Part shown: in pieces, positions 1 through 9,713 of the stretch
Layout of the letters: every line of letters begins with the position of its first letter
Position numbering within the stretch: position 1 is the first letter of the stretch
IMG/VR virus record: IMGVR_UViG_2737471860_000011
Location: 1-9,713 of that record
Source of the DNA: a virus
Taxonomy: Duplodnaviria; Heunggongvirae; Uroviricota; Caudoviricetes
Length of the DNA: 9,713 bases
Direction: 5' to 3' (one strand)
The notes under the pieces: generated by a model
Seen by the model: only the letters and a program-made list of their open reading frames with translations
Told to the model about the DNA's origin: nothing
Databases searched by the model: none
Translations under genes and position numbers: made by a program

Positions 1-83
1 AGAAAAGTCAATGGGTTAGGTCATCGTGCAAATTTGCACTATGCCAGCCAACGCAATTTTGCGTTATCGGGAATATCAGCAAG

Positions 84-365
84 TTACCGCCGCAGTCGTT
101 CCGGCTTCTTCCACTGGTAAGTATTTTTCGCGCTCTCCCTCCGTTGTTGAGAACGGCGACGGTATGCCAGCAACTCAAGGACTCTGGTTCGTATGTTGCG
201 CATATCCACGCCGTTAAGCTCAATACCGTCACGGCGCATCACCTCAGCAACAACACGCGCGTAATTTTCGGCTGTCACGCTGTCCGGCTGTGTGGCCTGT
301 TCGTCATGCTGCTGGCTGATTCCGGTAACGCGGCGGATTAATCCCAGTAGTTCGGCTTCTGTCAT
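84..365 (-). CDS. Hypothetical protein (93 aa), function unknown
   Basis: ATG at 365-363 preceded by GGGGG Shine-Dalgarno 4 nt upstream; TAA stop at 86-84. Lies immediately outside the cosQ side of the left cos copy. No family recognised. Confidence 0.45.
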   Translation of the reverse strand: MTEAELLGLIRRVTGISQQHDEQATQPDSVTAENYARVVAEVMRRDGIELNGVDMRNIRTRVLELLAYRRRSQQRRESAKNTYQWKKPERLRR

Positions 366-397
366 TGTGCCCCCATCGCTCTGATAGTCTGGTGTCG

Positions 398-465
398 TCG
401 GGTCCTTCCTGGAATTATGGCCCGTTACGGGGCGGCGACCTCGCGGTTTTTCGCTATTTATGAGC
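398..465 (+). other. Lambda-type cos site, copy L (cosQ-like, cosN 430-441, start of cosB), plus orientation
   Basis: Contains GGGTCCTT...GTTACG followed by GGGCGGCGACCT and CGCGGTTTTTCGCTATTTATGA. This matches the phage lambda genome ends (right end ...GGTTACG, left end GGGCGGCGACCTCGCGGGTTTTCGCTATTTATGA) as recalled from memory. Confidence 0.75.
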
Positions 466-658
466 TTTTTTAGAGGGAGGTTGTTGTTTAATTGTTTGTC
501 ATATCCATTTGATAACTAAGTAAAAATAAAGAGCAATACAACAACCTGATAGTGTTTTTTTGATGCTAAAAATAAAAAAATGCTAATTGAATCAAATAGT
601 TTTAAAAAAATACGTGGTTGTTGTATTGCGTATTTGATGGCGTAACAGAAAGTGATTT

Positions 659-1099
659 TTAACTTTGCTGTTCTGTAACGACTGATTGTTCCATGCTGGC
701 ACGGCGAACGCTTACGGCATGACGCCACCCAGCCAGAAAGCCAGCCATTTTATTTCGTGCCTTGCTCACATCTTCCGGTGAATAGCCGTAAATCTGCAAA
801 CCTTCATCAAATCGATGTTCTGTTTCTTCACTGGAGTACTCGTCACGCTCAGATGAAAGCAGCCTGGCAAACATAATTTTTTCCAGCGCACTGGTTTCTA
901 CGTGATATCTGATGGCCTCAAGACGGCTTTTACCTGAAGACCAAAGCAATGTATGCCCGATGTGATAACCGCCAGACTTTCCGCGATCCGCATTAAGATA
1001 CGGCATCCCCTGTTTGGTCCATGCGCGAATAGTGGTTCTGTTAACCTTGAAATGTTCAGCTATTTCCTGCTGACTTACAAAACAAGCTTTATCAATCAT
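659..1099 (-). CDS. Terminase small subunit Nu1-like protein / candidate PICI Rpp-type packaging-redirection protein (146 aa)
   Basis: N-terminus SQQEIAEHFKVNRTTIRAWTKQGMPYL parallels lambda Nu1 KKQLADIFGASIRTIQNWQEQGMPV (winged HTH). ATG at 1099-1097 with AAGGT Shine-Dalgarno; start lies about 90 bp downstream of cosN copy R in the lambda cos-to-Nu1 arrangement. Confidence 0.8.
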   Translation of the reverse strand: MIDKACFVSQQEIAEHFKVNRTTIRAWTKQGMPYLNADRGKSGGYHIGHTLLWSSGKSRLEAIRYHVETSALEKIMFARLLSSERDEYSSEETEHRFDEGLQIYGYSPEDVSKARNKMAGFLAGWRHAVSVRRASMEQSVVTEQQS

Positions 1100-1165
1100 A
1101 ATGTTACCTTAACTGCATGGTTAAATATTAATCAAGTGGTGGTGGTGTCACCTTCACGGAAAAAC

Positions 1166-1233
1166 GTCATAAATAGCGAAAAACCGCGAGGTCGCCGCCC
1201 CGTAACGGGTCCATATGCCGGAAAGGACCCGCA
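1166..1233 (-). other. Lambda-type cos site, copy R (cosN 1189-1200 on minus strand), canonical position upstream of the Nu1-like gene
   Basis: Reverse complement reads GGGTCCTTTCCGG...CCCGTTACG, GGGCGGCGACCT, CGCGGTTTTTCGCTATTTATGA. About 90% identical to copy L in inverted orientation; cosN 12-mer identical to lambda. Confidence 0.8.
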
Positions 1234-1254
1234 AAAAAGCCGGATTTCTCCGGC
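1233..1254 (-). terminator. Rho-independent terminator ending the capsid-module transcript
   Basis: Minus strand reads GCCGGAGAAATCCGGC (6-bp stem, 4-nt loop) followed by TTTTTT. Located 7 nt after the stop of the 137-aa gene. Confidence 0.6.
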
Positions 1255-1260
1255 CTTGTC

Positions 1261-1674
1261 TCAGATGGTTTTCAGTATGCGATCAATGTCGCCGTCATCG
1301 CCCGGGTTTCTGCCATCGTATGCCATGCCAGCTGATACGGCTTGTGGGCTGTGCATGTCCATAAAGTTTTCAAAGGCTGCGGTAAGCTCTGGTGCAACCT
1401 TCTGGCGTTCCTGCTCTATGGTCATGTTCAGGATGTTTTTAGCCGTATCAACATCAATACAAGGCACGTTTGCCATTGCACGTAACAGCGGCTGATAGTC
1501 GTCAGATTCATGAAGCGACATAATCGCATCAGCGCGCGGCTTGTCCTGTTCTTCCAGTTTGTTAAGTTGATATATAGCTTCGTAGGTTGATAGACATCTG
1601 TCAGCCATTGCCCGCGCTTCAGCTTTAAATTTACTCGCCAGCGGTAGCGCCATGATACTTTCATTCGTTGCCAT
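1261..1674 (-). CDS. Hypothetical protein (137 aa) in capsid module; possible assembly or scaffold-like factor
   Basis: ATG at 1674-1672 with GGTGGA Shine-Dalgarno, 13 nt after the gpD-like stop. The track ORF 1261..1785 extends upstream across the gpD-like gene and is probably an over-extension. Acidic, helical-looking sequence; no family recognised. Confidence 0.55.
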   Translation of the reverse strand: MATNESIMALPLASKFKAEARAMADRCLSTYEAIYQLNKLEEQDKPRADAIMSLHESDDYQPLLRAMANVPCIDVDTAKNILNMTIEQERQKVAPELTAAFENFMDMHSPQAVSAGMAYDGRNPGDDGDIDRILKTI

Positions 1675-1687
1675 CGTTCCACCCTGC

Positions 1688-2023
1688 TTATCGCGCCAGC
1701 GGCTGAACAGATACACCAGAACCCGCAAAGGCGGCGCATTTTTTCGCGTCAGTGTCGGCGCTCTCAGGCCAGTTAACGGCGGCAATATTGAATATCCCCG
1801 TCTTGTAACACTGTGCTGACTTCTGCTTTGACGTGTCCACGGGGTACGAAGTCAGATAAACAGCCTTGCCAGATTCCTGACCATCCCACGGCTTAAACTC
1901 GCCATTGTCCGCCAGCATCAGCGGGGTAAATTCCTGAATAACGCCAGCATCAGCGGCAAAATGTACCAGTGTCGTGGATACCTGCTGACTGCCTGCAAAT
2001 AACTCAATGTATGGAGTGTCCAT
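1688..2023 (-). CDS. Head decoration protein, lambda gpD-like (111 aa)
   Basis: TPLMLADNGEFKPWDG and YKTGIFNIAAVNWPESADTDAKKCAAFAGSGVSV parallel lambda gpD TPLMLDTSSRKLVAWDG and [35 protein letters not shown]. ATG at 2023 with GGGGGA Shine-Dalgarno, 11 nt after capsid stop. Confidence 0.85.
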   Translation of the reverse strand: MDTPYIELFAGSQQVSTTLVHFAADAGVIQEFTPLMLADNGEFKPWDGQESGKAVYLTSYPVDTSKQKSAQCYKTGIFNIAAVNWPESADTDAKKCAAFAGSGVSVQPLAR

Positions 2024-2034
2024 AGAATCCCCCG

Positions 2035-3090
2035 TTAACCAATTTTGACGGTAACAAATTTGCGAATATCTGCCGGAACCGGCTGCGGTGCGCTGTGTGT
2101 CTGCACGTACTCAATCGCCGGATCGCCGTCCTCAATCCAGTTTTTCGGGTAGTACATGTTTTGCGTTGCGCCCGTTCTTACAGCTTCCTGATCCATAATC
2201 GCACCATAGGCCACCAGACCTTTGTTGTTGGTGTTGCCCAGGACCAGTAAATCAGGCTCAAGGAAATATTTTTCGGTGCCGTCGCTGTCAGTGTATTTGC
2301 CGGAATAGACGATAAGGGCAATATCGCCCAGATAGCCTTTAAAGCTCACCACTTCGCCCAGGTTTTTACAGGCCAGTTCTGCGGCGGATTCTGAACCACG
2401 GGAAAGATCGTACAGTTCGCGGAATTTTTTAAAGCTGCGTAACGTTCGCCATACCTCAGCGCCCATAATCATGACGTTGGCGGGGCAACCTGCTTGATCT
2501 GCGTATAGTTCGATATCATAGATTGGATCATGGGTTTCTTTGTCCTGCTCTGACCATTTACGGCCTTTGGCCTGCTCTATGATGTTTTTTTCCGGTATCT
2601 TCCAGTCGATTTCATAGCGTTCTATGCCTTCGCCCTCAATGATGTTTTTTCCGGTCGTTACCGCATTCACCGCCAGCCATTCCACGCGTGCCTTAATGGC
2701 GTTTATCTGGCGGCGCATGTTGCCAGTAATCAGGCGCATACGTCGGTAGGTAGGATCGTTAAGCTGTGCCGGATCTTCTCCAGCCATGCGCATGATGGTT
2801 TTTGTTGGATCGATTTCGTGCTTTGGCTTCATGTAGCCAGGTTTAATCGTGCTGGTTTCGTACCCTTTATCGCGCTGTACCTGGCTACCCACCATAGGCG
2901 AACAAAACGCAGACATGGTAACTTCTTCGGTATCCAGGTTATCCAGCATGATGTTTTGCGTGTTGAATGTCGCTACTTTCGGGAAAAACAGCGACGTAAA
3001 CAGTGGACTGAATTTAAATTCCGAAATATCCCCGCGATTCAGGTATCTGAAAAGCTGGTTAGTGTTAAGTGCCGTTGCTTTGCCTGTCAT
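2035..3090 (-). CDS. Major capsid protein, lambda gpE family (351 aa)
   Basis: KFSPLFTSLFFP, KPGYMKPKHEIDP, DPTYRRMRLITGNMRRQ and C-terminal YPKNWIEDGDPA match lambda gpE (KFDPLFLRLFFR, TPGYVKPKHEVNP, DPAYRRRRIIMQNMRDE, YPKNWVTTGDPA). Strong GGAGGTG Shine-Dalgarno 4 nt before ATG at 3090. Confidence 0.9.
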   Translation of the reverse strand: MTGKATALNTNQLFRYLNRGDISEFKFSPLFTSLFFPKVATFNTQNIMLDNLDTEEVTMSAFCSPMVGSQVQRDKGYETSTIKPGYMKPKHEIDPTKTIMRMAGEDPAQLNDPTYRRMRLITGNMRRQINAIKARVEWLAVNAVTTGKNIIEGEGIERYEIDWKIPEKNIIEQAKGRKWSEQDKETHDPIYDIELYADQAGCPANVMIMGAEVWRTLRSFKKFRELYDLSRGSESAAELACKNLGEVVSFKGYLGDIALIVYSGKYTDSDGTEKYFLEPDLLVLGNTNNKGLVAYGAIMDQEAVRTGATQNMYYPKNWIEDGDPAIEYVQTHSAPQPVPADIRKFVTVKIG

Positions 3091-3296
3091 TATTCACCTC
3101 CATGAGTCTGATTCATGCCCAGCGCCGCACGTAAATAGGCGCGTACCTGCCAGCCTGTTGACGGCTCAACCATCGCCAGCGGCTCAAGTCCTGCCGCAAT
3201 GCCTGCTTTTACGTTCTGCTGGTGGCGTTCCTTGAGCGCCTCCACGATGTCTGGGCTTATGTAAACTGTCACCCCGCCTTTTTTCTCTTCTGCCAT
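3090..3296 (-). CDS. Hypothetical small protein (68 aa) translationally coupled to the major capsid gene
   Basis: ATG at 3296 with AGAGGA Shine-Dalgarno about 10 nt upstream; its TAA stop overlaps the capsid ATG (TAATG). The track ORF begins at a GTG (3329) inside the promoter palindrome, which is less likely. Function unknown. Confidence 0.45.
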   Translation of the reverse strand: MAEEKKGGVTVYISPDIVEALKERHQQNVKAGIAAGLEPLAMVEPSTGWQVRAYLRAALGMNQTHGGE

Positions 3297-3324
3297 AGTC
3301 GGAAATTCCTCTTTGACGTTAAAA

Positions 3325-3380
3325 ATCACAACTGGATGTTCATCCAGTTGTGATTATAATCATGATTTCATTTTACGCAA
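3325..3380 (-). promoter_or_regulatory. Candidate sigma70 promoter of the capsid module overlapped by a 30-bp perfect palindrome operator
   Basis: Minus strand: -35 TTGCGT (3380-3375), 16-bp spacer, -10 TATAAT (3358-3353). Palindrome ATCACAACTGGATG-tt-CATCCAGTTGTGAT (3325-3354) abuts the -10 and covers the predicted start site; its core is CTG-N10-CAG. Confidence 0.5.
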
Positions 3381-3465
3381 TAATGTTTGGTTGTGTTGCA
3401 AATTGTGAAATGATTTGCGGCAACAGTAGTCACCATACTGTTAGATAAAAGCCTCATATGCAAAA

Positions 3466-3502
3466 GCCCGATAAGACCCTCTGACCTTATCGGGCTTTTT
3501 TT
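3466..3502 (+). terminator. Strong rho-independent terminator (bidirectional potential) between SSB and capsid modules
   Basis: GCCCGATAAG / CTTATCGGGC 10-bp stem with 10-nt loop followed by TTTTTTT on the plus strand; preceded by AAAA, giving a 4-U tail on the minus strand. Confidence 0.65.
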
Positions 3503-3509
3503 GGGGCAT

Positions 3510-3531
3510 AAAAAAGCCGAACTTCTCCGGC
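3510..3531 (-). terminator. Rho-independent terminator after the SSB gene
   Basis: Minus strand GCCGGAGAAGTTCGGC (imperfect stem) followed by TTTTTT. About 20 of 22 nt identical to the terminator at 1233-1254. Confidence 0.5.
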
Positions 3532-3547
3532 TTCTGTTACTCATTGC

Positions 3548-3970
3548 TTAAAACGGTATGTTATCCCCGTACGGATCATCGTTACCCGCCTGTTGTTTTG
3601 CCCTGTTCAGTGCGTCAGTAGCCTGGCCCTGTTGACCTTTTTTGCCGCCCAGTCGCGCCGTTCGCGCACTGATTACACTGTCTGCGATAACCTGCCAGCC
3701 CTGCCGCGTTTCTCCGTTCTGCCCAGTCCACTGGCTGATCTGCATGTTACCCGCCACGCTCAGGAGTTCACCCTTGCGGTGCCTTTCCAGTGCTTCGGCC
3801 TGTCTGCCAAATGCCAGGACGGATAACCACATCGTCGCCGTTCCGTCATCTGCCTGGCTGCACGGAAGGGGGACCGCCATACGCGCCAGCGTCATCGGTG
3901 TGCCCTTGCTGGTGGTCTTTAACTGCTGGTCAGCCACCAGCCGCCCGTAAGCCGCTATCTGTGCTGTCAT
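3548..3970 (-). CDS. ssb: Single-stranded DNA-binding protein (SSB) homolog (140 aa)
   Basis: OB-fold signature WLSVLAFGRQAEALERHRKGE...QWTGQNGETRQGWQV parallels E. coli SSB [21 protein letters not shown]...KWTDQSGQDRYTTEV. Gly/Gln-rich linker and C-terminal tail ending DNIPF (E. coli SSB ends DDDIPF). ATG at 3970. Confidence 0.8.
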   Translation of the reverse strand: MTAQIAAYGRLVADQQLKTTSKGTPMTLARMAVPLPCSQADDGTATMWLSVLAFGRQAEALERHRKGELLSVAGNMQISQWTGQNGETRQGWQVIADSVISARTARLGGKKGQQGQATDALNRAKQQAGNDDPYGDNIPF

Positions 3971-4033
3971 GCTGTCTGTTCTCCGGTTTTAACGTTGATA
4001 GTTACGCTTGTTTACACCCTTACGGTGAAATTC

Positions 4034-4158
4034 TGCGGGTTATAATCGCACTTTTGCGGGTTATAACTGCCATTTTGCGGGTTACGTGCGGGTTATTGAT
4101 TTCCTTTTTATTCATACAGTTAATTCACTTATACACAGGATAACCCGCATAACCCGCA
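4034..4158. repeat. Iteron array, putative replication origin
   Basis: Direct repeats of TGCGGGTTAT/C at 4034-4043, 4055-4064, 4076-4085 (21-bp phasing) and 4087-4096; AT-rich spacer 4097-4139; two inverted copies ATAACCCGCA at 4140-4149 and 4149-4158. Immediately 3' of the primase-helicase gene. Confidence 0.7.
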
Positions 4159-4181
4159 ACTTTTCACCTCACACAGGGTAG

Positions 4182-6305
4182 TTAATCTTCTGCCTCAGGC
4201 TGGAACATCATCACGTAAAAAACATGCTGCTTACCCCCAATTTTGCCGAGCGCCTTTTTCTTGTAACGGCGATCGTTACCCGCTTCCAGCATTCCGGCAG
4301 CACTCAACGCGCGGGCAAAGTGAGACGGATTAAATCCCTGTGCTATCTCACCCTCAAACACATGAGGAAACGTGTAAAAACGGAACTCATCATCTTCATT
4401 TCTGATACTCCCCTTTCTGTATCCGGCAAGGTCTTTAATCGGTAAATCACGCTCATCACTGTTTGGGTAAGGAAGGTATCGACTGAACCCGAACGACGAC
4501 AAAAACGCCTCAGCCTGTTCAACCATCTGTTTAAATTCCCTGTTACCCGTGCCGAACTCCTTCACCCAGGCATTAAAGTTATGCTGTATTGCGTCCCGGC
4601 ATTCCTGCGCGGCCCAGCCAGTTACATGACCGGAAAGCACAAGCGCAGCCTCCAGTATGGCGAAACGCTCCCCCACGCGGTGGACCTGCTCGCCGTAGCT
4701 ATCCGGTATCAGGTTGCGCCACCGTTCGCGGCATTCCCTTACCGTATCCTTTGCCTCCTGCTGGTGGTCTGCCAGCCATTTAACCCATTCACGACCCGCC
4801 GCCCCGTGATTTTCTGTCCAGGCATCTTTTAACGCGTCTGCGTGCGCCTTTCCGGTGCTGTATTCGTGAAATTGCGTGGCTTTTTCCATCGGAACGTTAA
4901 GCAGGCGGACAAGCTGCCCCGCTTTGACTTTTATCCCCTCCGTTTTGAGGAATGTCTCAACGTCCATTTCTCCGGTGCTGATTGCCACCGTGCGCCAGTG
5001 TTTTATCTCCCGGTTGCCGCCGTCCTTCGCCCCCTGTAATTTCCCGGAGCCGTTAAACAACGTATAGGCTGACGTGGACACCTCCCGCGCGTTTCCGGCC
5101 TGACCTATTTCATCCAGGGGTAACAGCCCGTCGTTGTGTGCCTCTGCCTCGTTGGCGATACCTAACGCCGTTCCGTACCAAGTAAGCCGTTGTGCGTCCG
5201 GCTCTCCCCATAAACTTGATGCGATGTTCTGCGTGGTGGTTTTCCCTGCCGATGACTGTTCGAAAAGATGTACCCCGAAGCCGTCAGCACCAACAAGGCC
5301 AATCAAAGGTGCTGCCAGTGACGTGGCAACACCCAGCATCATGGACGGATTGCCACCAGCCAGCCGCGCCACGCTGTCACGCCAGCCCTCCGCCGTACCC
5401 GCAACCGAATAGCCATTAACAGCGGCACTTTTTCCGGTAAACAGGATCGGTTTTTCAGAATCACCAATGATTGAACCGTCCGGCATGATGTACGCGCCAA
5501 AATGCCAGCCCGTTGTTGTGCTTAACTGCCATTCCTCATGGCTTCCGCTTAACTGCATCCAGTCAGCCAGGATAGCCCTGTATTTGCCGTTTGTTGTCAC
5601 ATTCAGCCCGTGATCTTTAAGCAACCGCCAGCCGTCACGGTCGCCAATGCCACCACACGGGATCGCCATTGTGATGACTTCATGGTTTGCTAATTTTTTC
5701 CAGCGCATCACGCGGTAATGCTCTTTACCGATCGTCCCCGTTCCCAGTAGTTCAAGCGGAGAACATAACCACGTCTCAGGCCGGATAATTTCGCCTGACT
5801 GCTTATCCACTTTGGGCGTTACCCAGAAAACACCATCGACGCGACTTTCAACGCGGGGCTTTAATTCATCATCCTGATAGCATGGCTCTTTTTTCTTTAC
5901 AGGCAGTTCAACTACCTTTTTCTTTTCCGCCAGCTCTCCCCGCTCACGCTCCAGATATTCGCGCCAGTTCTCCCGTTTCTGGCTGTGCATTCCTTCAGGG
6001 TAATAATCAGCATCCCTGACACCTGCCGCTGCCAGTTTCTGCCCGATGGTATTAACAAGCCCCGGACGCAATAACCCCGCCTGATAGAGACGCACGCGAT
6101 AGCGTCCGTCCGGTACGATTTGCAGGTTGTCCAGTTCGACAAGTTGTTGCTCTCCAAGCCAGACAGGTGGCACGTTATCGCCAGCCAGTCGCCCGTCCTG
6201 TTCCTGCCACTGTTTCGCATGTGCCCACGCATCACTACCCGCAAAAATGATGACTTCCGTCATTTTGTCACGCGGCTGGTGTTTTAAATTTGGCGCTTTT
6301 TTCAT
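4182..6305 (-). CDS. Replication initiator, fused primase-helicase (P4 alpha-like / DUF927-type, Pri-Rep), about 707 aa
   Basis: Large ORF with a P-loop-like motif (FEQSSAGKTT); position downstream of AlpA and directly upstream of the iteron array. Preferred start is the ATG at 6305 with GGAGAG Shine-Dalgarno, rather than the upstream GTG at 6320. ATG overlaps the stop of the preceding ORF (ATGA). Family assignment is from overall resemblance and context, not a domain search. Confidence 0.8.
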   Translation of the reverse strand: MKKAPNLKHQPRDKMTEVIIFAGSDAWAHAKQWQEQDGRLAGDNVPPVWLGEQQLVELDNLQIVPDGRYRVRLYQAGLLRPGLVNTIGQKLAAAGVRDADYYPEGMHSQKRENWREYLERERGELAEKKKVVELPVKKKEPCYQDDELKPRVESRVDGVFWVTPKVDKQSGEIIRPETWLCSPLELLGTGTIGKEHYRVMRWKKLANHEVITMAIPCGGIGDRDGWRLLKDHGLNVTTNGKYRAILADWMQLSGSHEEWQLSTTTGWHFGAYIMPDGSIIGDSEKPILFTGKSAAVNGYSVAGTAEGWRDSVARLAGGNPSMMLGVATSLAAPLIGLVGADGFGVHLFEQSSAGKTTTQNIASSLWGEPDAQRLTWYGTALGIANEAEAHNDGLLPLDEIGQAGNAREVSTSAYTLFNGSGKLQGAKDGGNREIKHWRTVAISTGEMDVETFLKTEGIKVKAGQLVRLLNVPMEKATQFHEYSTGKAHADALKDAWTENHGAAGREWVKWLADHQQEAKDTVRECRERWRNLIPDSYGEQVHRVGERFAILEAALVLSGHVTGWAAQECRDAIQHNFNAWVKEFGTGNREFKQMVEQAEAFLSSFGFSRYLPYPNSDERDLPIKDLAGYRKGSIRNEDDEFRFYTFPHVFEGEIAQGFNPSHFARALSAAGMLEAGNDRRYKKKALGKIGGKQHVFYVMMFQPEAED

Positions 6306-6601
6306 TTCTGCTCTCTCCACGCGGCAATCATGTTTTTCAGTTCCTGTAGTTTTTTATCCACATCCACACGTGACACATGGTTATTTCTGGAAGTCGGGAT
6401 TTCCCGCCGGAATCTACAAATAAAGATCTCCACGTTCAGCGAACTAAGAAATGAATAGCCATCACGGATAAAATACACACGGTCAAACATCAGTTCTTTT
6501 ACCGTTACTCTGTTACCGTTCTTATCCAGATAAATAGCGCCGGGGATAATTTTGGGGTGTGCATAACCGCTGGCAGTCAAGCCAGATAAATACGTTCTCA
6601 T
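6302..6601 (-). CDS. Hypothetical protein (99 aa), translationally coupled to primase-helicase
   Basis: ATG at 6601 with GGGGA Shine-Dalgarno; TGA stop overlaps the primase ATG. About 38% GC in a sampled 100-bp stretch, lower than the primase gene. No family recognised. Confidence 0.55.
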   Translation of the reverse strand: MRTYLSGLTASGYAHPKIIPGAIYLDKNGNRVTVKELMFDRVYFIRDGYSFLSSLNVEIFICRFRREIPTSRNNHVSRVDVDKKLQELKNMIAAWREQK

Positions 6602-6607
6602 GATTAC

Positions 6608-6928
6608 TTATCCCCGATTTGAATCAGTATTCGCTTTCTTTATGGCATTTAACGCATCTGTGGCATTTTCAATGGTGCACCGTAACGAAATATCAAACTG
6701 CCCAAGCATTGTCAGTAACAAACCGATATTCCCCATGTCAATGCGCATAGCCTTTTCGTCATATTCCTTATTTTCTGACGCATACCACATCAGGCTACCA
6801 ATTGACGCAACAGCCATTGATATATTGTCAGTAGCCGCATCCGCAGCAGAATAAACCTTTTTAGCAATATCATGCTCACAGTTAAAATGCGGATTAATCA
6901 GGTACTGGTAATTTGACATATCAGGCAT
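6608..6928 (-). CDS. Hypothetical protein (106 aa)
   Basis: ATG at 6928 with GGGGG Shine-Dalgarno; 6-nt gap to the next gene. Low-GC like its neighbour. No family recognised. Confidence 0.55.
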   Translation of the reverse strand: MPDMSNYQYLINPHFNCEHDIAKKVYSAADAATDNISMAVASIGSLMWYASENKEYDEKAMRIDMGNIGLLLTMLGQFDISLRCTIENATDALNAIKKANTDSNRG

Positions 6929-7124
6929 GGCACACCCCCTGACGAATACGGGCAGCGAATACCATCACGCAGCCAGCCGGGGATTGCTGGCGTGCTTCCT
7001 GTTCGCTGCTGGCCTCAATGGTAATCACGCGCGGTTGTGCCGTACTCAGGGCGATAAAACGCCAGATGTATTTATTCAGGTTGTGCGAGTCCAGCCCTTG
7101 CGGGTGTGTGGTATGATTTCTCAT
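6921..7124 (-). CDS. Hypothetical small protein (67 aa), first gene of the replication operon
   Basis: ATG at 7124 with GAGGT Shine-Dalgarno 5 nt upstream; 8-nt overlap with the next gene start. The track ORF 6921..7862 (313 aa) is rejected as one CDS; only the 3' 68 codons have a ribosome-binding site and sit downstream of the promoter. Confidence 0.4.
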   Translation of the reverse strand: MRNHTTHPQGLDSHNLNKYIWRFIALSTAQPRVITIEASSEQEARQQSPAGCVMVFAARIRQGVCHA

Positions 7125-7222
7125 AGCTACCTCGATACTCTTGCTATCGTTGGTGGTTAGACGCCCTGCATGTGTTGCGAGCACTGCGGGGCGTTGCTTA
7201 ATTTGAGTGACAAAACTCAAAC

Positions 7223-7302
7223 TGTGCGCACAGATTAAAATCATGTGTGCGCACATGTCAATACTTAACATCTCATTTTTTTTGCTGTATTGTGTGCGCC
7301 CA
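7223..7302. promoter_or_regulatory. Divergent promoter region with three operator palindromes (TGTGCGCACA)
   Basis: Perfect 10-bp palindrome at 7223-7232 and 7246-7255; one-mismatch copy TGTGCGCCCA at 7293-7302. Minus-strand promoter: -35 TTGACA (7261-7256), 16-bp spacer containing O2, -10 TTTAAT (7239-7234), with O1 at about +1. Plus-strand promoter: -35 TTAACA (7265-7270), 17 bp, -10 TATTGT (7288-7293), with O3 over -10/+1. Confidence 0.6.
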
Positions 7303-7329
7303 TAAAGTCCATTTAAGTGAGGTGCATCA

Positions 7330-7527
7330 ATGTCTAGCGGTAACACAAACAACAAATCAGCAAAGAAAAATATTCGATTCCCACATGAGCTTATAGATGG
7401 GATTGATGCCAGCGTTGAACAAGAAAAATTAACTAATCCTAGTGCTAATTTTTCCGCATGGGTCTTAGATGCCTGTGGACGCAAATTAAAATATGAACAG
7501 CGCCGGAAGGCCAAAGAATCAGAATAA
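7330..7527 (+). CDS. Arc/Mnt-like ribbon-helix-helix transcriptional regulator (65 aa), candidate repressor of the replication operon
   Basis: NIRFPHELIDGIDASVEQE...NFSAWVLDACGRKL parallels P22 Arc NLRWPREVLDLVRKVAEENGRSVNSEIYQRVMESF (beta-strand then two helices). GAGGTG Shine-Dalgarno 6 nt before ATG; divergent from the operon across the operator palindromes. Confidence 0.65.
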   Translation: MSSGNTNNKSAKKNIRFPHELIDGIDASVEQEKLTNPSANFSAWVLDACGRKLKYEQRRKAKESE

Positions 7528-7584
7528 TCACTATCAGCGCCGTGGTGTGAGTAACTACGGCGCATTGCTATGCAGGACAACACA

Positions 7585-7758
7585 ATGACCGATAAAGAAT
7601 TGACCAAAACATTATCACCGGCACGGAAAAGACGGCGCAGAAAGATAGAGCATGAATCAGAAAGATTCGCACCTTGTTCGTTTGCTCTTGAGAAATTCCT
7701 TAAAGAGCACAGGAAAAAGCTCTCGTTGCAAACCTTGGGACGAACCAAATCTGACTGA
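7585..7758 (+). CDS. Hypothetical small arginine-rich protein (57 aa from ATG 7585; track ORF starts at 7570)
   Basis: AGGA about 8 nt before ATG 7585; contains ARKRRRRK. Sits between the RHH gene and a plus-strand terminator. Weak support overall. Confidence 0.3.
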   Translation: MTDKELTKTLSPARKRRRRKIEHESERFAPCSFALEKFLKEHRKKLSLQTLGRTKSD

Positions 7759-7825
7759 TCACATTGCCCACCAGCCGCAAATGTGGCATTGTTGGTGATG
7801 CGTTCAAGTTTAGTGTGTATCCATT

Positions 7826-7851
7826 GGCGACCGCCCCCGGTCGCCTTTGTT
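7826..7851 (+). terminator. Rho-independent terminator of the plus-strand regulatory transcript
   Basis: GGCGACC gccccc GGTCGCC hairpin followed by TTTGTTATATAT on the plus strand; no U-tract on the minus strand. Confidence 0.6.
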
Positions 7852-7872
7852 ATATATGTCATATGCTCCCCT

Positions 7873-8082
7873 TTACGCTGCCTTACCTGAATTAATGCGA
7901 TCCCGGCTTTTAACCCATTCCATAACCTCGGACAGCAGCCAACCTACAGAACGCCCACCAAGATTACGGCGAGACGGAAAGCTCCCTTTTTTCTCCAGTT
8001 CGTAGCGTGTAGTGCGACACACTCCAGTTAACTTACGACATTCATCCTCACGGATTACGCGATCTTCATTTATTTCACGCAT
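7873..8082 (-). CDS. alpA: AlpA / P4 Vis-family transcriptional regulator (69 aa; track ORF extends to a GTG at 8169)
   Basis: ECRKLTGVCRTTRYELEKKGSFPSRRNLGGRSVGWLLSEVMEWV matches the AlpA pattern (HTH, then KxGxFP...LGGRSV.W...E...W). ATG at 8082 with AGGT Shine-Dalgarno; adjacent to and co-directional with the integrase. Confidence 0.8.
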   Translation of the reverse strand: MREINEDRVIREDECRKLTGVCRTTRYELEKKGSFPSRRNLGGRSVGWLLSEVMEWVKSRDRINSGKAA

Positions 8083-8474
8083 ACAAAAACCTACATAAAA
8101 ATTACGTATATAAACTTTTCTCTTAGCTGTAGATATATGAGATCGGATATTACTTAGATTCTTTTTCACCTCTTAAATTAAAAACACAACCATGCTAAAG
8201 GCTTTGTTCGCTAAGGTTCGTAGAAGCTCGTTAGTGTTTAAAATCGTGTCACGAGTTTTTAAGCGACGCAACAAAAAAATGTCTTCATTTTGCATGACAC
8301 TTGAATTATCTCATTAAAAACAAATAGATAAACCATCAAGTGTTGGAACAATCAAGAAACAGAGAATAAAAACCCAGAAGACGACATTCCAATTAAGATA
8401 TTTGCAGATATTTTCCGATATTCTACGATTTATTCACGGCTGTAATCTCTTAAAGAAAAAACAGCCGTAATTTG

Positions 8475-9713
8475 TCAATAATTTTGGGTGTAAATTCGCG
8501 GGGTCATAACAACGATTTTTTCATCATTGTTCTGGAGAAGCTCGAGACGGTCTACCCATAGATTAAGAGCGTCACGCTTTGCATCGAGATAACGGGAGTG
8601 GTTATAGACGCGTTGCATTCCTGGCATCTGGTGGGCAGTAAGCTGTTCGACAATATGCGGATCCACGCCTAAATCGTTCAGCATGGTTGTAAATGTGTGC
8701 CGGATGTCGTGCAACGACCAGGGGGCTTGATTAATGCGTCTGTGTGCCGTTCTTCCGTACTCTGCTACGGATGATTGCCCTTTCAGTTCTCCAAGCAATA
8801 AGCCCGTGTGCCTGTTCTGCTCCACCAGCTTCATGACGAACGGCAAGATCGCTTCCGGTATTGGCCTGAATATTGCTACCTTCGTTTTGCTGTGTTCTTT
8901 CGGCACAGTCCAGAGCATTTCTTTAAAATCCCATTCCCGAACCTCGGAGCGTCTTAGCTCAGTGGTACGGCATCCGAAGACAATCAGAAGGCGAATTAAA
9001 GCGCTGTAGTACGGCGGGAAAATTTTTTCATCCAGTGCGCGGAGTAGCTCGCCAAGCTCCTTGTTTGTTAGCACTCGCTCGCTTATTTCTGCTTTTTTTC
9101 CCACATCACCTACGACCATATCATCAAGAACGTTACTGACGGCGTAGCGACGTTTACGGCAGTACTTAAGCGCCTGTTTGCATACCTGCAACAAAAAGCC
9201 GGCTGATACCGGATTACGCTTAGCAAGCTGGTCAAAACAGGCCAGCCAGTGGCGTAGCTCGCATTTATCCAGCGGCATAGCACCAATCTGGCTGATTATG
9301 TGCTTATTGATACGGCTTTTCAGTGATTCGTGGTCAGTGCGCTTTTCCTTCGCATACGACTCAAGCCAGTAAGTGAGCGCGTCCTTAACCGTCACGGGGG
9401 CTAACGCTTCCTGCACTGTGTGATTAAGCTCATGGCGTGGATTTTTCCCCTCCGCCAGCCAGGCGCGACACTGTGCCGCTTTTTCCCTGGCTGCTTTCAG
9501 GCTCAGATCGGGATAGTTGCCCAGTCTCAGGCGTTCCGGTGATACCTGCCTGCCAGTTCCGGCCCTGTAAGTGAAATACCAGGTTAACAGGCCGCTAGTG
9601 GAATGTCTTACGCTAAGATTGCCACCGTCATTAAAAAAGGCGTTTTTTGTGGTTGGTGATCCGCTTAATTTTCGTAAAAGAGTGTCGCTAAGTCTATGAA
9701 TTGCGCTGCTCAT
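8475..9713 (-). CDS. int: Site-specific tyrosine recombinase, P4-type integrase (412 aa; start codon is the last 3 nt of the window, possibly 5'-incomplete)
   Basis: N-terminal LSDT...DGGNLSV...YFTYR...LGNYPDLSLKAAR parallels the CP4-57 IntA N-domain. C-terminal catalytic signature HDIRHTF (H-x-x-R) and VYNHSRY (tyrosine nucleophile). Confidence 0.9.
   Translation of the reverse strand: MSSAIHRLSDTLLRKLSGSPTTKNAFFNDGGNLSVRHSTSGLLTWYFTYRAGTGRQVSPERLRLGNYPDLSLKAAREKAAQCRAWLAEGKNPRHELNHTVQEALAPVTVKDALTYWLESYAKEKRTDHESLKSRINKHIISQIGAMPLDKCELRHWLACFDQLAKRNPVSAGFLLQVCKQALKYCRKRRYAVSNVLDDMVVGDVGKKAEISERVLTNKELGELLRALDEKIFPPYYSALIRLLIVFGCRTTELRRSEVREWDFKEMLWTVPKEHSKTKVAIFRPIPEAILPFVMKLVEQNRHTGLLLGELKGQSSVAEYGRTAHRRINQAPWSLHDIRHTFTTMLNDLGVDPHIVEQLTAHQMPGMQRVYNHSRYLDAKRDALNLWVDRLELLQNNDEKIVVMTPRIYTQNY

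Follow-up and report, generated by a model that had tools for sequence, protein, structure and literature searches.

Gram-negative phage-inducible chromosomal islands (PICIs) serve as widespread gene-transfer vehicles, and the genes that lie between their alpA and primase genes are left hypothetical in annotation. Among the closest described systems is the left operon of satellite P4, which runs orf88 (a vis/alpA homolog), eta/kil, epsilon, orf151, orf106 and the alpha primase gene. Here we examine the corresponding region of a 9,713-nucleotide (nt) stretch of DNA, positions 1–9,713 of IMG/VR virus record IMGVR_UViG_2737471860_000011 (hereafter the window), in which three small open reading frames (ORFs), ORF-A, ORF-B and ORF-C, precede a primase gene. 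Gene content places the window in the EcCICFT073 family of PICIs, phage satellites that are common in E. coli. On our reading, to which as a whole, gene roles included, we give a probability of roughly 60%, the region forms the promoter-proximal end of this island's leftward early/replication operon, laid out like the P4 left operon.

In the P4 sequence, eta is a frame of 197–199 codons whose ATGs overlap the orf88 stop, with a nested 65-codon kil that has an AGGAGG ribosome-binding site (RBS). Eta contains an internal constitutive promoter, and Kil is its truncated killing product (PMC10111431). Kil/Icd-type genes are coupled to their downstream neighbors both in P4, where the next gene is epsilon (helper derepression), and in P1, where it is ant, within an immI operon that runs c4 RNA, icd, ant1/ant2. 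In EcCICFT073, the prototype Gram-negative PICI, AlpA acts as an activator (PMC6092414). A further relevant locus is the "prophage-encoded superinfection exclusion" system of ECOR61, in which cell death is triggered by orf24, suppressors lie in an Icd-like gene and the next two small genes, and all six linked genes, including a primase gene, are required (bioRxiv 10.1101/2023.04.06.535777, Silas et al.).

Small genes between alpA and the primase gene

The region comprises the following features, in the order of leftward reading.

7873–8081, minus strand: alpA, AlpA-family activator/excisionase gene (PF05930, 4.8e-16), adjoining the long frame upstream
6921–7862, minus strand: 313-codon stop-free Eta-like frame, from the alpA-side start to the end of ORF-A
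6921–7124, minus strand: ORF-A, 67 amino acids (aa), ATG start, Shine-Dalgarno (SD) sequence GAGG; Icd-like/P4-Kil-type, the short nested form
6608–6928, minus strand: ORF-B, 106 aa, SD GGGGG; predicted acidic helical hairpin, variable-slot gene
6302–6601, minus strand: ORF-C, 99 aa, SD GGGGA; DUF4222
4182–6305, minus strand: primase/helicase gene (DUF927), 707 aa from the ATG at 6305; PF06048, 7.8e-48; phrog_1139, DNA primase

Family scans (Pfam, NCBIfam and PHROG) found tyrosine integrase, AlpA, YlcI/YnfO, Icd-like, DUF4222, DUF927 primase and single-stranded DNA-binding (SSB) proteins in the window, together with homologs of lambda-E-type capsid and gpD-type decoration proteins and a scaffold-like protein. 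It is this gene set, in the same order as in EcCICFT073, that assigns the window to the EcCICFT073 family. The int, alpA and pri genes are co-directional, the element is small and tail and lysis genes are absent, which is the combination that marks a Gram-negative PICI; the att flanks lie outside the window. EcCICFT073 (PMC6092414) shares the backbone of int, alpA, divergent YlcI/YnfO, Icd-like, slot, DUF4222, primase and SSB genes, and homologs of its capsid (c1499) and decoration (c1500) proteins are also encoded here. The two islands differ in several respects. The EcCICFT073 slot holds four small hypothetical genes instead of ORF-B, and identity between the EcCICFT073 DUF4222 allele and ORF-C is 34%. 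EcCICFT073 is integrated next to roxA, whereas the closest relative of the window lies between clpS and cspD. For alpA itself, PGAP annotates a 69-aa form in relatives.

An earlier, sequence-only reading of this DNA had described ORFs of 67, 106 and 99 aa with RBSs and overlapping or abutting junctions ahead of the primase gene and translationally linked to it, and both observations hold for 6302–7124 on the minus strand. ORF-A and ORF-B overlap by 8 nt (ATGCCTGA), a gap of 6 nt separates ORF-B from ORF-C, and the TGA of ORF-C overlaps the primase ATG at 6305 (ATGA). A purine-rich SD stands before each of the three ORFs. The primase start is this ATG rather than the GTG at 6320. That reading had also sampled about 38% GC in the two longer ORFs, a fair value given that 100-bp windows across ORF-B and ORF-C have a mean GC of 0.419 and a minimum of 0.37. 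Its term "low-GC small-gene cassette" suits ORF-B (0.405) and ORF-C (0.430) and fails for ORF-A (0.564); the primase gene stands at 0.535 and the window at 0.487. Its statement that none of the ORFs resembled a known family applies to ORF-B only, since profile searches place ORF-A in NF033153 (69.6 bits against a curated cut-off of 25) and ORF-C in DUF4222 (61.4 bits against a gathering score of 27), with no informative match for ORF-B from profile or structure searches.

All three ORFs evolve as coding sequence. In a megablast search of positions 6250–7330 against 5426 complete E. coli genomes, 1394 gave some match and 375 matched with at least 80% coverage. Gene lengths and junctions were unchanged in six fetched variants, five of them at 94–98% identity. 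The ratio of nonsynonymous to synonymous polymorphism (pN/pS, summed pairwise by the Nei-Gojobori method over 6–7 variants) was 0.49 for ORF-A, 0.36 for ORF-B and 0.26 for ORF-C in frame, compared with 0.67–2.8 in shifted frames. The primase gene was excluded as a control for this measure because its N-terminal regions are not colinear.

Comparison with P4 makes it very probable that these small genes form the usual head of a PICI replication operon, built like that of the satellite. As a kind of cassette this is ordinary: the front of a P4-like early/replication operon. As in P4, an AlpA-family gene is followed by a long frame with an internal promoter that ends in a nested Kil/Icd-like product of about 65 aa, the stop of the Kil-like gene overlaps the start of the next gene by 8 nt (epsilon in P4, ORF-B here), and small genes lead into a primase/helicase gene. 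Unlike in P4, where the long frame matches Phage_ASH, the frame in the window has no Ash/Bro domain, and a YlcI/YnfO gene and palindromic operators lie antisense within its course. Neither epsilon nor orf106 has a homolog among the small genes of the window; ORF-B has in common with epsilon only its operon position and the 8-nt coupling to kil. The primase has a DUF927 architecture, unlike P4 alpha. The P1 immI operon likewise begins with an Icd-family gene coupled to the next gene by a stop/start overlap. However, P1 Icd is under the control of C4 antisense RNA, the downstream gene is an antirepressor gene unrelated to ORF-B, the operon has no replicase gene, and P1 is a plasmid prophage rather than a satellite.

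A stop-free frame from alpA to ORF-A

ORF-A matches the NCBIfam Icd-like family NF033153 at 1.7e-19, and its score falls among those of the known proteins (P4 Kil, 76.1 bits; P4 Eta, 73.3 bits; P1 Icd, 52.6 bits). BLASTP aligned it with P1 Icd at 35% identity over 43 residues (E 2e-6) and weakly with the P4 ORF (E 0.035); tblastn against phage genomes returned one satellite-like record and did not match P1 or P4. By analogy with these proteins, ORF-A is a small basic (isoelectric point [pI] 9.5) protein of the Kil/Icd type, expected to block cell division or kill when over-produced, and we predict that it probably has Kil-type activity. Every locus compared keeps a Met some 10 residues ahead of the Icd core, and the GAGG SD likewise persists across genera, Edwardsiella included, which indicates that the short form of ORF-A has a real start. 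All E. coli islands sampled carry ORF-A and ORF-C, two genes of the backbone.

As a side observation, PHROG labels Icd-like proteins, ORF-A among them, "transcriptional repressor" (phrog_6196 and phrog_1743). The label probably stems from the obsolete "cI" coding sequence of P4 (8168–8584, minus strand, in the P4 record, L004), which bears the same label and contains kil; P4 immunity is in fact mediated by an RNA.

The frame of ORF-A stays open for 246 codons upstream of its ATG, to position 7862, where an ATG with a GGGGAG SD in front lies 10 nt past the alpA stop. This frame has no stops, while the other two minus-strand frames have 16 and 20 over the same span, and a stop-free outcome arose in 0 of 20000 shuffles. 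We compared 23 distinct loci, drawn from Escherichia, Cedecea, Rahnella, Enterobacter, Rosenbergiella, Intestinirhabdus, Superficieibacter, Klebsiella-type islands and further sources. In 18 of them the frame is open over 100 or more codons ahead of the Icd core: the window and comparison loci L001, L002, L005, L006, L009–L013, L016, L019, L021–L023 and L025–L027. The stop-free stretch upstream ranged from 160 to 541 codons in these 18 loci, which pooled to 5088 codons with no in-frame stop, compared with 301 and 347 stops in the other frames. The whole frame reaches 428 codons in EcCICFT073 and 602 codons in L026, where it spans three opposite-strand genes. The first start codon lies 4–10 nt past the alpA stop in seven of 13 tabulated E. 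coli islands.

The arrangement, judged from sequence, is that of P4 eta/kil, and we infer by analogy that the logic of P4 eta, a translated frame read through from alpA, holds for the window too. The P4 precedent accounts for a frame kept stop-free across opposite-strand genes in 18 loci from several genera. We considered whether the frame might be a by-product of base composition or of antisense genes, and rejected this idea: genes on the opposite strand occupy no more than about half of its length, the alternative frames carry the stops counted above, and the pattern recurs in diverged loci with different intervening content. The extension shows no protein-level conservation, its only shared motifs being the conserved YlcI/YnfO gene read backwards, and a Pfam scan found no domain in it.

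Within the window, the frame is antisense to the YlcI/YnfO gene and to a second plus-strand ORF, and it crosses the intergenic promoter/operator region. The features there are as follows.

7223–7232, 7246–7255 and 7293–7302 (1 mismatch): three copies of the palindrome TGTGCGCACA, from a repeat search; operator-like sites
7232–7261, minus strand: promoter-like site in the long frame, with −35 TTGACA at 7261–7256, an 18-nt spacer and −10 TAATCT at 7237–7232
7265–7293, plus strand: promoter-like site of the YlcI/YnfO gene
7330–7527, plus strand: YlcI/YnfO-family (DUF3950) gene (NF041551, 3.5e-16; PF13132; phrog_949), divergent and antisense inside the long frame
7826–7845, plus strand only: strong GC hairpin followed by a T-run, in the first codons of the minus-strand long frame

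The operator-like sites lie in the spacer and over the −10/+1 region of the minus-strand promoter-like site. That TTGACA/TAATCT site was read directly from the sequence and falls below the −10 threshold of the promoter scanner. The hairpin at 7826–7845 likely terminates the YlcI/YnfO transcript.

ORF-B occupies a mosaic slot

ORF-B is the only variable gene of the three, one of at least six small-gene families that, to judge from the islands compared, alternate in a mosaic slot. Other E. coli islands carry in this position families of 59–61 aa, 63 aa, 70–77 aa ("W-L-E-S") and 121–128 aa, along with two more of about 75 aa. The sequence-only reading had proposed checking the variability of this position across related islands, and the interval between the first gene and the replicase gene is indeed variable; it corresponds to the "dynamic zone" between integration and replication described previously (PMC10111431). 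ORF-B relatives lie between a Kil-like gene and the replicase gene in Superficieibacter, Edwardsiella, Rahnella, Rosenbergiella and two Klebsiella-type islands, where they recur alongside three replicase architectures, and the Superficieibacter relative has the same 8-nt overlap with its Kil-like gene.

No Pfam, NCBIfam or PADLOC model matched ORF-B, and its only family match is phrog_15327, which has no function assigned. A phmmer search with the single sequence against 1.84e9 representatives gave 15 matches, and a profile built from distant relatives of about 100 aa gathered 190 proteins of 98–110 aa from Klebsiella, Raoultella, Rahnella, Edwardsiella, Phytobacter and Buttiauxella. By these profile matches ORF-B belongs to an unmodelled Enterobacterales family of about 190 proteins of about 105 aa; a Pfam scan of 68 members gave no meaningful match. 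A match of 1222 aa in the phmmer search was discarded as a tetratricopeptide-repeat (TPR) protein whose score is inflated by 13 repeats and does not reflect homology. Many family members from Klebsiella, Raoultella and Phytobacter are named "ubiquinol-cytochrome C reductase" in NCBI and UniRef with no supporting domain, probably a propagated misnomer.

An AlphaFold2 (AF2) model of ORF-B built on a 68-sequence alignment (mean predicted local distance difference test [pLDDT] score 87; predicted template modelling [pTM] score 0.72) shows a short helix and then a long antiparallel hairpin made up of helices 19–51 and 58–105; it replaced a single-sequence model that was unusable (pLDDT 57.7). ORF-B has an acidic pI of 4.8 and lacks a transmembrane segment. 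A fold search with this model returned generic matches only, none of them informative, and a profile search of the family against the PDB gave only non-significant TPR matches. ORF-B lacks the combination of hairpin and W-x-G loop motif that characterizes WXG100/EsxA-like helical hairpins. From the predicted fold we tentatively suggest a protein-binding factor aimed at the helper, the host or Kil, a role that we regard as possible rather than probable.

The ORF-B and ORF-C alleles of the window form a separate lower-GC lineage relative to other E. coli alleles, whose DUF4222 genes have a GC of 0.47–0.51 and encode products with 34–36% amino-acid identity to ORF-C. This pattern fits module exchange among PICIs better than imported cargo.

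DUF4222 accompanies the replicase

ORF-C, a basic protein (pI 9.9), matches PF13973 (DUF4222) over residues 16–67 at 5.9e-17, and also phrog_285. Each of the 13 E. coli islands sampled has a member of the family, as do the L005, L008, L014 and L016 types. Wherever a DUF4222 gene directly precedes a replicase gene, the two share the ATGA overlap (15 of 15 distinct genes). The replicases that follow DUF4222 share the N-terminus MK.APN.K..P.D..TE.IIFAGSDAW (in the window, MKKAPNLK...EVIIFAGSDAW) whatever label PGAP or Pfam gives them: DNA primase family, DUF927, helicase RepA family or D5_N/DUF5906. Replicases with differing C-terminal architectures (those of the window, L002, L005, L008, L014 and L023–L027) have this one N-terminal segment of about 30–140 aa, phrog_2850. 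The comparison suggests that a common, swappable N-terminal module of the replicase travels with DUF4222.

Given the ATGA coupling to a replicase with a constant N-terminal segment, ORF-C is probably made in step with the replicase. From this linkage only, we propose with somewhat less than even confidence that ORF-C is a replication-module accessory or a regulator of the replicase. In P4, orf106 encodes Cnr, a copy-number regulator that binds alpha. A profile search of DUF4222 against the PDB gave only non-significant matches, tblastn with ORF-C and with the short DUF4222 protein from L016 found no match in phage genomes, and all ORF-C homologs found in the protein search for structure prediction were at least 81% identical.

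Weighing the operon reading and its rivals

Our results on gene order, junctions, family matches and conservation are consistent with a model whose transcription and translation steps are modelled on P4 and EcCICFT073. In this model, a helper phage would switch alpA on, and transcription starting at the alpA promoter would cover alpA, the 313-codon Eta-like frame, ORF-B, ORF-C and the primase gene, all translated without a break. Translation of the long frame would prevent termination over about 740 nt despite the opposite-strand genes and the internal promoter. The internal promoter, weak and covered by operators, could also express the short nested product, ORF-A. Because the stop of ORF-A overlaps the start of ORF-B by 8 nt, translation of ORF-B would be coupled to that of ORF-A, in the way that P4 couples epsilon to kil and P1 couples ant to icd. 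ORF-B, as an acidic two-helix hairpin, would most likely bind another protein, whether from the helper phage, from the host or Kil itself, and ORF-C, made in step with the replicase, would act as its accessory or regulator.

Several observations weigh against this model. ORF-B found no match to P4 epsilon by BLASTP, with an hhalign probability of 0.3%, and ORF-C none to P4 orf106/DUF5375, with a probability of 0.09%. DUF4222 is absent from seven non-E. coli islands, and in L016 a gene with a weak DUF5375 match stands between the DUF4222 gene and the primase gene, which weakens a strict pairing of DUF4222 with the replicase. The long frame is short (72–139 codons) in five of the 23 distinct loci and is therefore not obligatory. 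In one strain, E. coli 2313, ORF-B is frameshifted (L020, 1659–1980) with ORF-A intact; ORF-B is thus dispensable for maintaining a resident island. Finally, an Rfam scan of the whole window at E ≤ 1 gave no C4 or isrK match (C4/CI-type immunity RNA), so the regulation differs from that of P4 and P1.

Another slot gene is frameshifted in O111:H8 strain 7-54 11A (L026, 2530–2975). In the islands of both strains, the Icd-like, DUF4222 and replicase genes are intact.

A different view takes the Kil-like gene, ORF-B, DUF4222 and the primase gene as a trigger-activated cell-death or superinfection-exclusion system, in which a protein of an infecting phage de-represses or activates the operon, Kil kills and the slot gene sets the trigger that is sensed. 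We consider this unlikely, although it has a close parallel in ECOR61, where orf24, a phage gene, causes cell death and transposon suppressors map to an Icd-like gene and the next two small genes, of 186 and 192 nt, the first of which overlaps the Icd-like gene by 8 nt; a P4 prophage in ECOR15 acts similarly when triggered by Abc1. Like the window, the ECOR61 locus carries an Icd-like gene, whose annotation includes an N-terminal extension; small genes overlap the stop of that gene, and a primase gene is linked to them. The gene lengths and order of the locus match those of L024, whose six genes are Icd-like, 61 aa, 63 aa, 73 aa, DUF4222 and primase and which shares its Icd-like, DUF4222 and primase backbone with the window. 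From this agreement in lengths and order only, we infer that ECOR61 carries a PICI operon of the same type. Yet the slot genes of the ECOR61 type (about 61 and 63 aa) come from families unrelated to ORF-B, the correspondence with L024 is itself one of gene lengths and order only, the reconstituted ECOR61 effect was described as muted, and PADLOC has no model for any gene here. A role in cell death could, moreover, coexist with a replication operon rather than replace it. Somewhat less probable still is that ORF-A and ORF-B form a toxin–antidote pair, with the acidic hairpin neutralizing a basic Kil-like toxin made from the coupled message. The opposite charges (pI 9.5 and 4.8), the 8-nt overlap, the recurrence of that overlap where an ORF-B homolog directly follows Kil in L013, and the killing function of P4 Kil all speak for such a pair. 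However, many islands have a Kil-like gene without an ORF-B relative, the relatives in L014 and L016 are separated from Kil by other genes, and the frameshift in strain 2313 leaves ORF-A intact, a state that the strain could hardly sustain if it needed ORF-B as an antidote.

The sequence-only reading had favored separately acquired cargo. In its full form this view would make ORF-B and ORF-C morons, beneficial to the host or anti-phage, that have no role in the life cycle of the island. Low GC relative to the flanking genes, the distinct low-GC lineage of the two alleles and the mosaic slot are what such a history would leave, and for ORF-B alone separate acquisition remains a fitting description; ORF-A and ORF-C belong to the backbone. 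As an account of ORF-B and ORF-C together we think it rather improbable, since DUF4222 is missing from none of the E. coli islands sampled and its gene is joined by ATGA to the replicase gene each time, ORF-B relatives hold the same operon position in five other genera and with three replicase types, and neither ORF matches a defense, virulence or metabolic family. The suggestion in that reading that the position suits helper-interference or anti-phage genes has precedents in P4 epsilon and ECOR61, both positional and not homologous, but the published PICI defense and cargo hotspots are elsewhere, at the 5′ end, at the 3′ end and downstream of pri (PMC11364771). PADLOC-DB v2 at E ≤ 0.1 gave no match for ORF-A, ORF-B, ORF-C, the primase or the YlcI/YnfO protein. 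That at least one of the three is a chance open frame, an idea prompted by their small size and by the lack of a curated family for ORF-B, is largely refuted by the in-frame pN/pS values, the lengths and junctions conserved in the 375-genome match set, the family-level homologs of all three across genera and the confident AF2 model of ORF-B.

The operon reading divides the stretch between alpA and the primase gene into a conserved Kil/Eta-type first gene, a mosaic slot with at least six families, and a DUF4222 gene that accompanies the replicase, and two misleading database labels, "ubiquinol-cytochrome C reductase" and "transcriptional repressor", are corrected along the way. Taken with the ECOR61 data, this division points to the slot as somewhere to search for factors that target the helper or sense phages. 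Of the by-products, the most interesting is the stop-free frame conserved from alpA to kil, with its candidate repressor/operator set, and the hypothesis that this frame is translated is directly testable. A more speculative combination, improbable when all of its parts are taken jointly, would make slot genes such as ORF-B the specificity modules of a Kil-based, trigger-activated abortive-infection switch in the PICI replication operon. The stop-free frame would then be a translation-dependent anti-termination device that separates a basal repressed state (internal promoter, Kil poised) from an induced state (alpA read-through into replication), and YlcI/YnfO acting on the TGTGCGCACA operators would be the repressor of Gram-negative PICIs.

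Other features of the window and related islands

Four TGCGGGTTAT iterons, three of them spaced 21 nt, lie at 4034–4096 of the window, between the primase stop and the ssb start. PICI origins of replication are found at that place, downstream of pri, and the iterons are consistent with one. The only match of the Rfam scan, a sub-threshold one to NsiR1 (3439–3503, plus strand; 24 bits against a gathering score of 39), falls on a hairpin followed by a U-run in an AT-rich gap that separates ssb from a 79-aa gene. We rejected it as a small RNA; it is instead a terminator-like hairpin. In two Klebsiella-type contigs (L014 and L015), capsid and tail genes of a phage (Major_capside, Phage_cement and Dit_like) lie to either side of an island that has ORF-B-like and DUF4222 genes, an arrangement that resembles the helper-embedded PICI configuration (PMC10111431).

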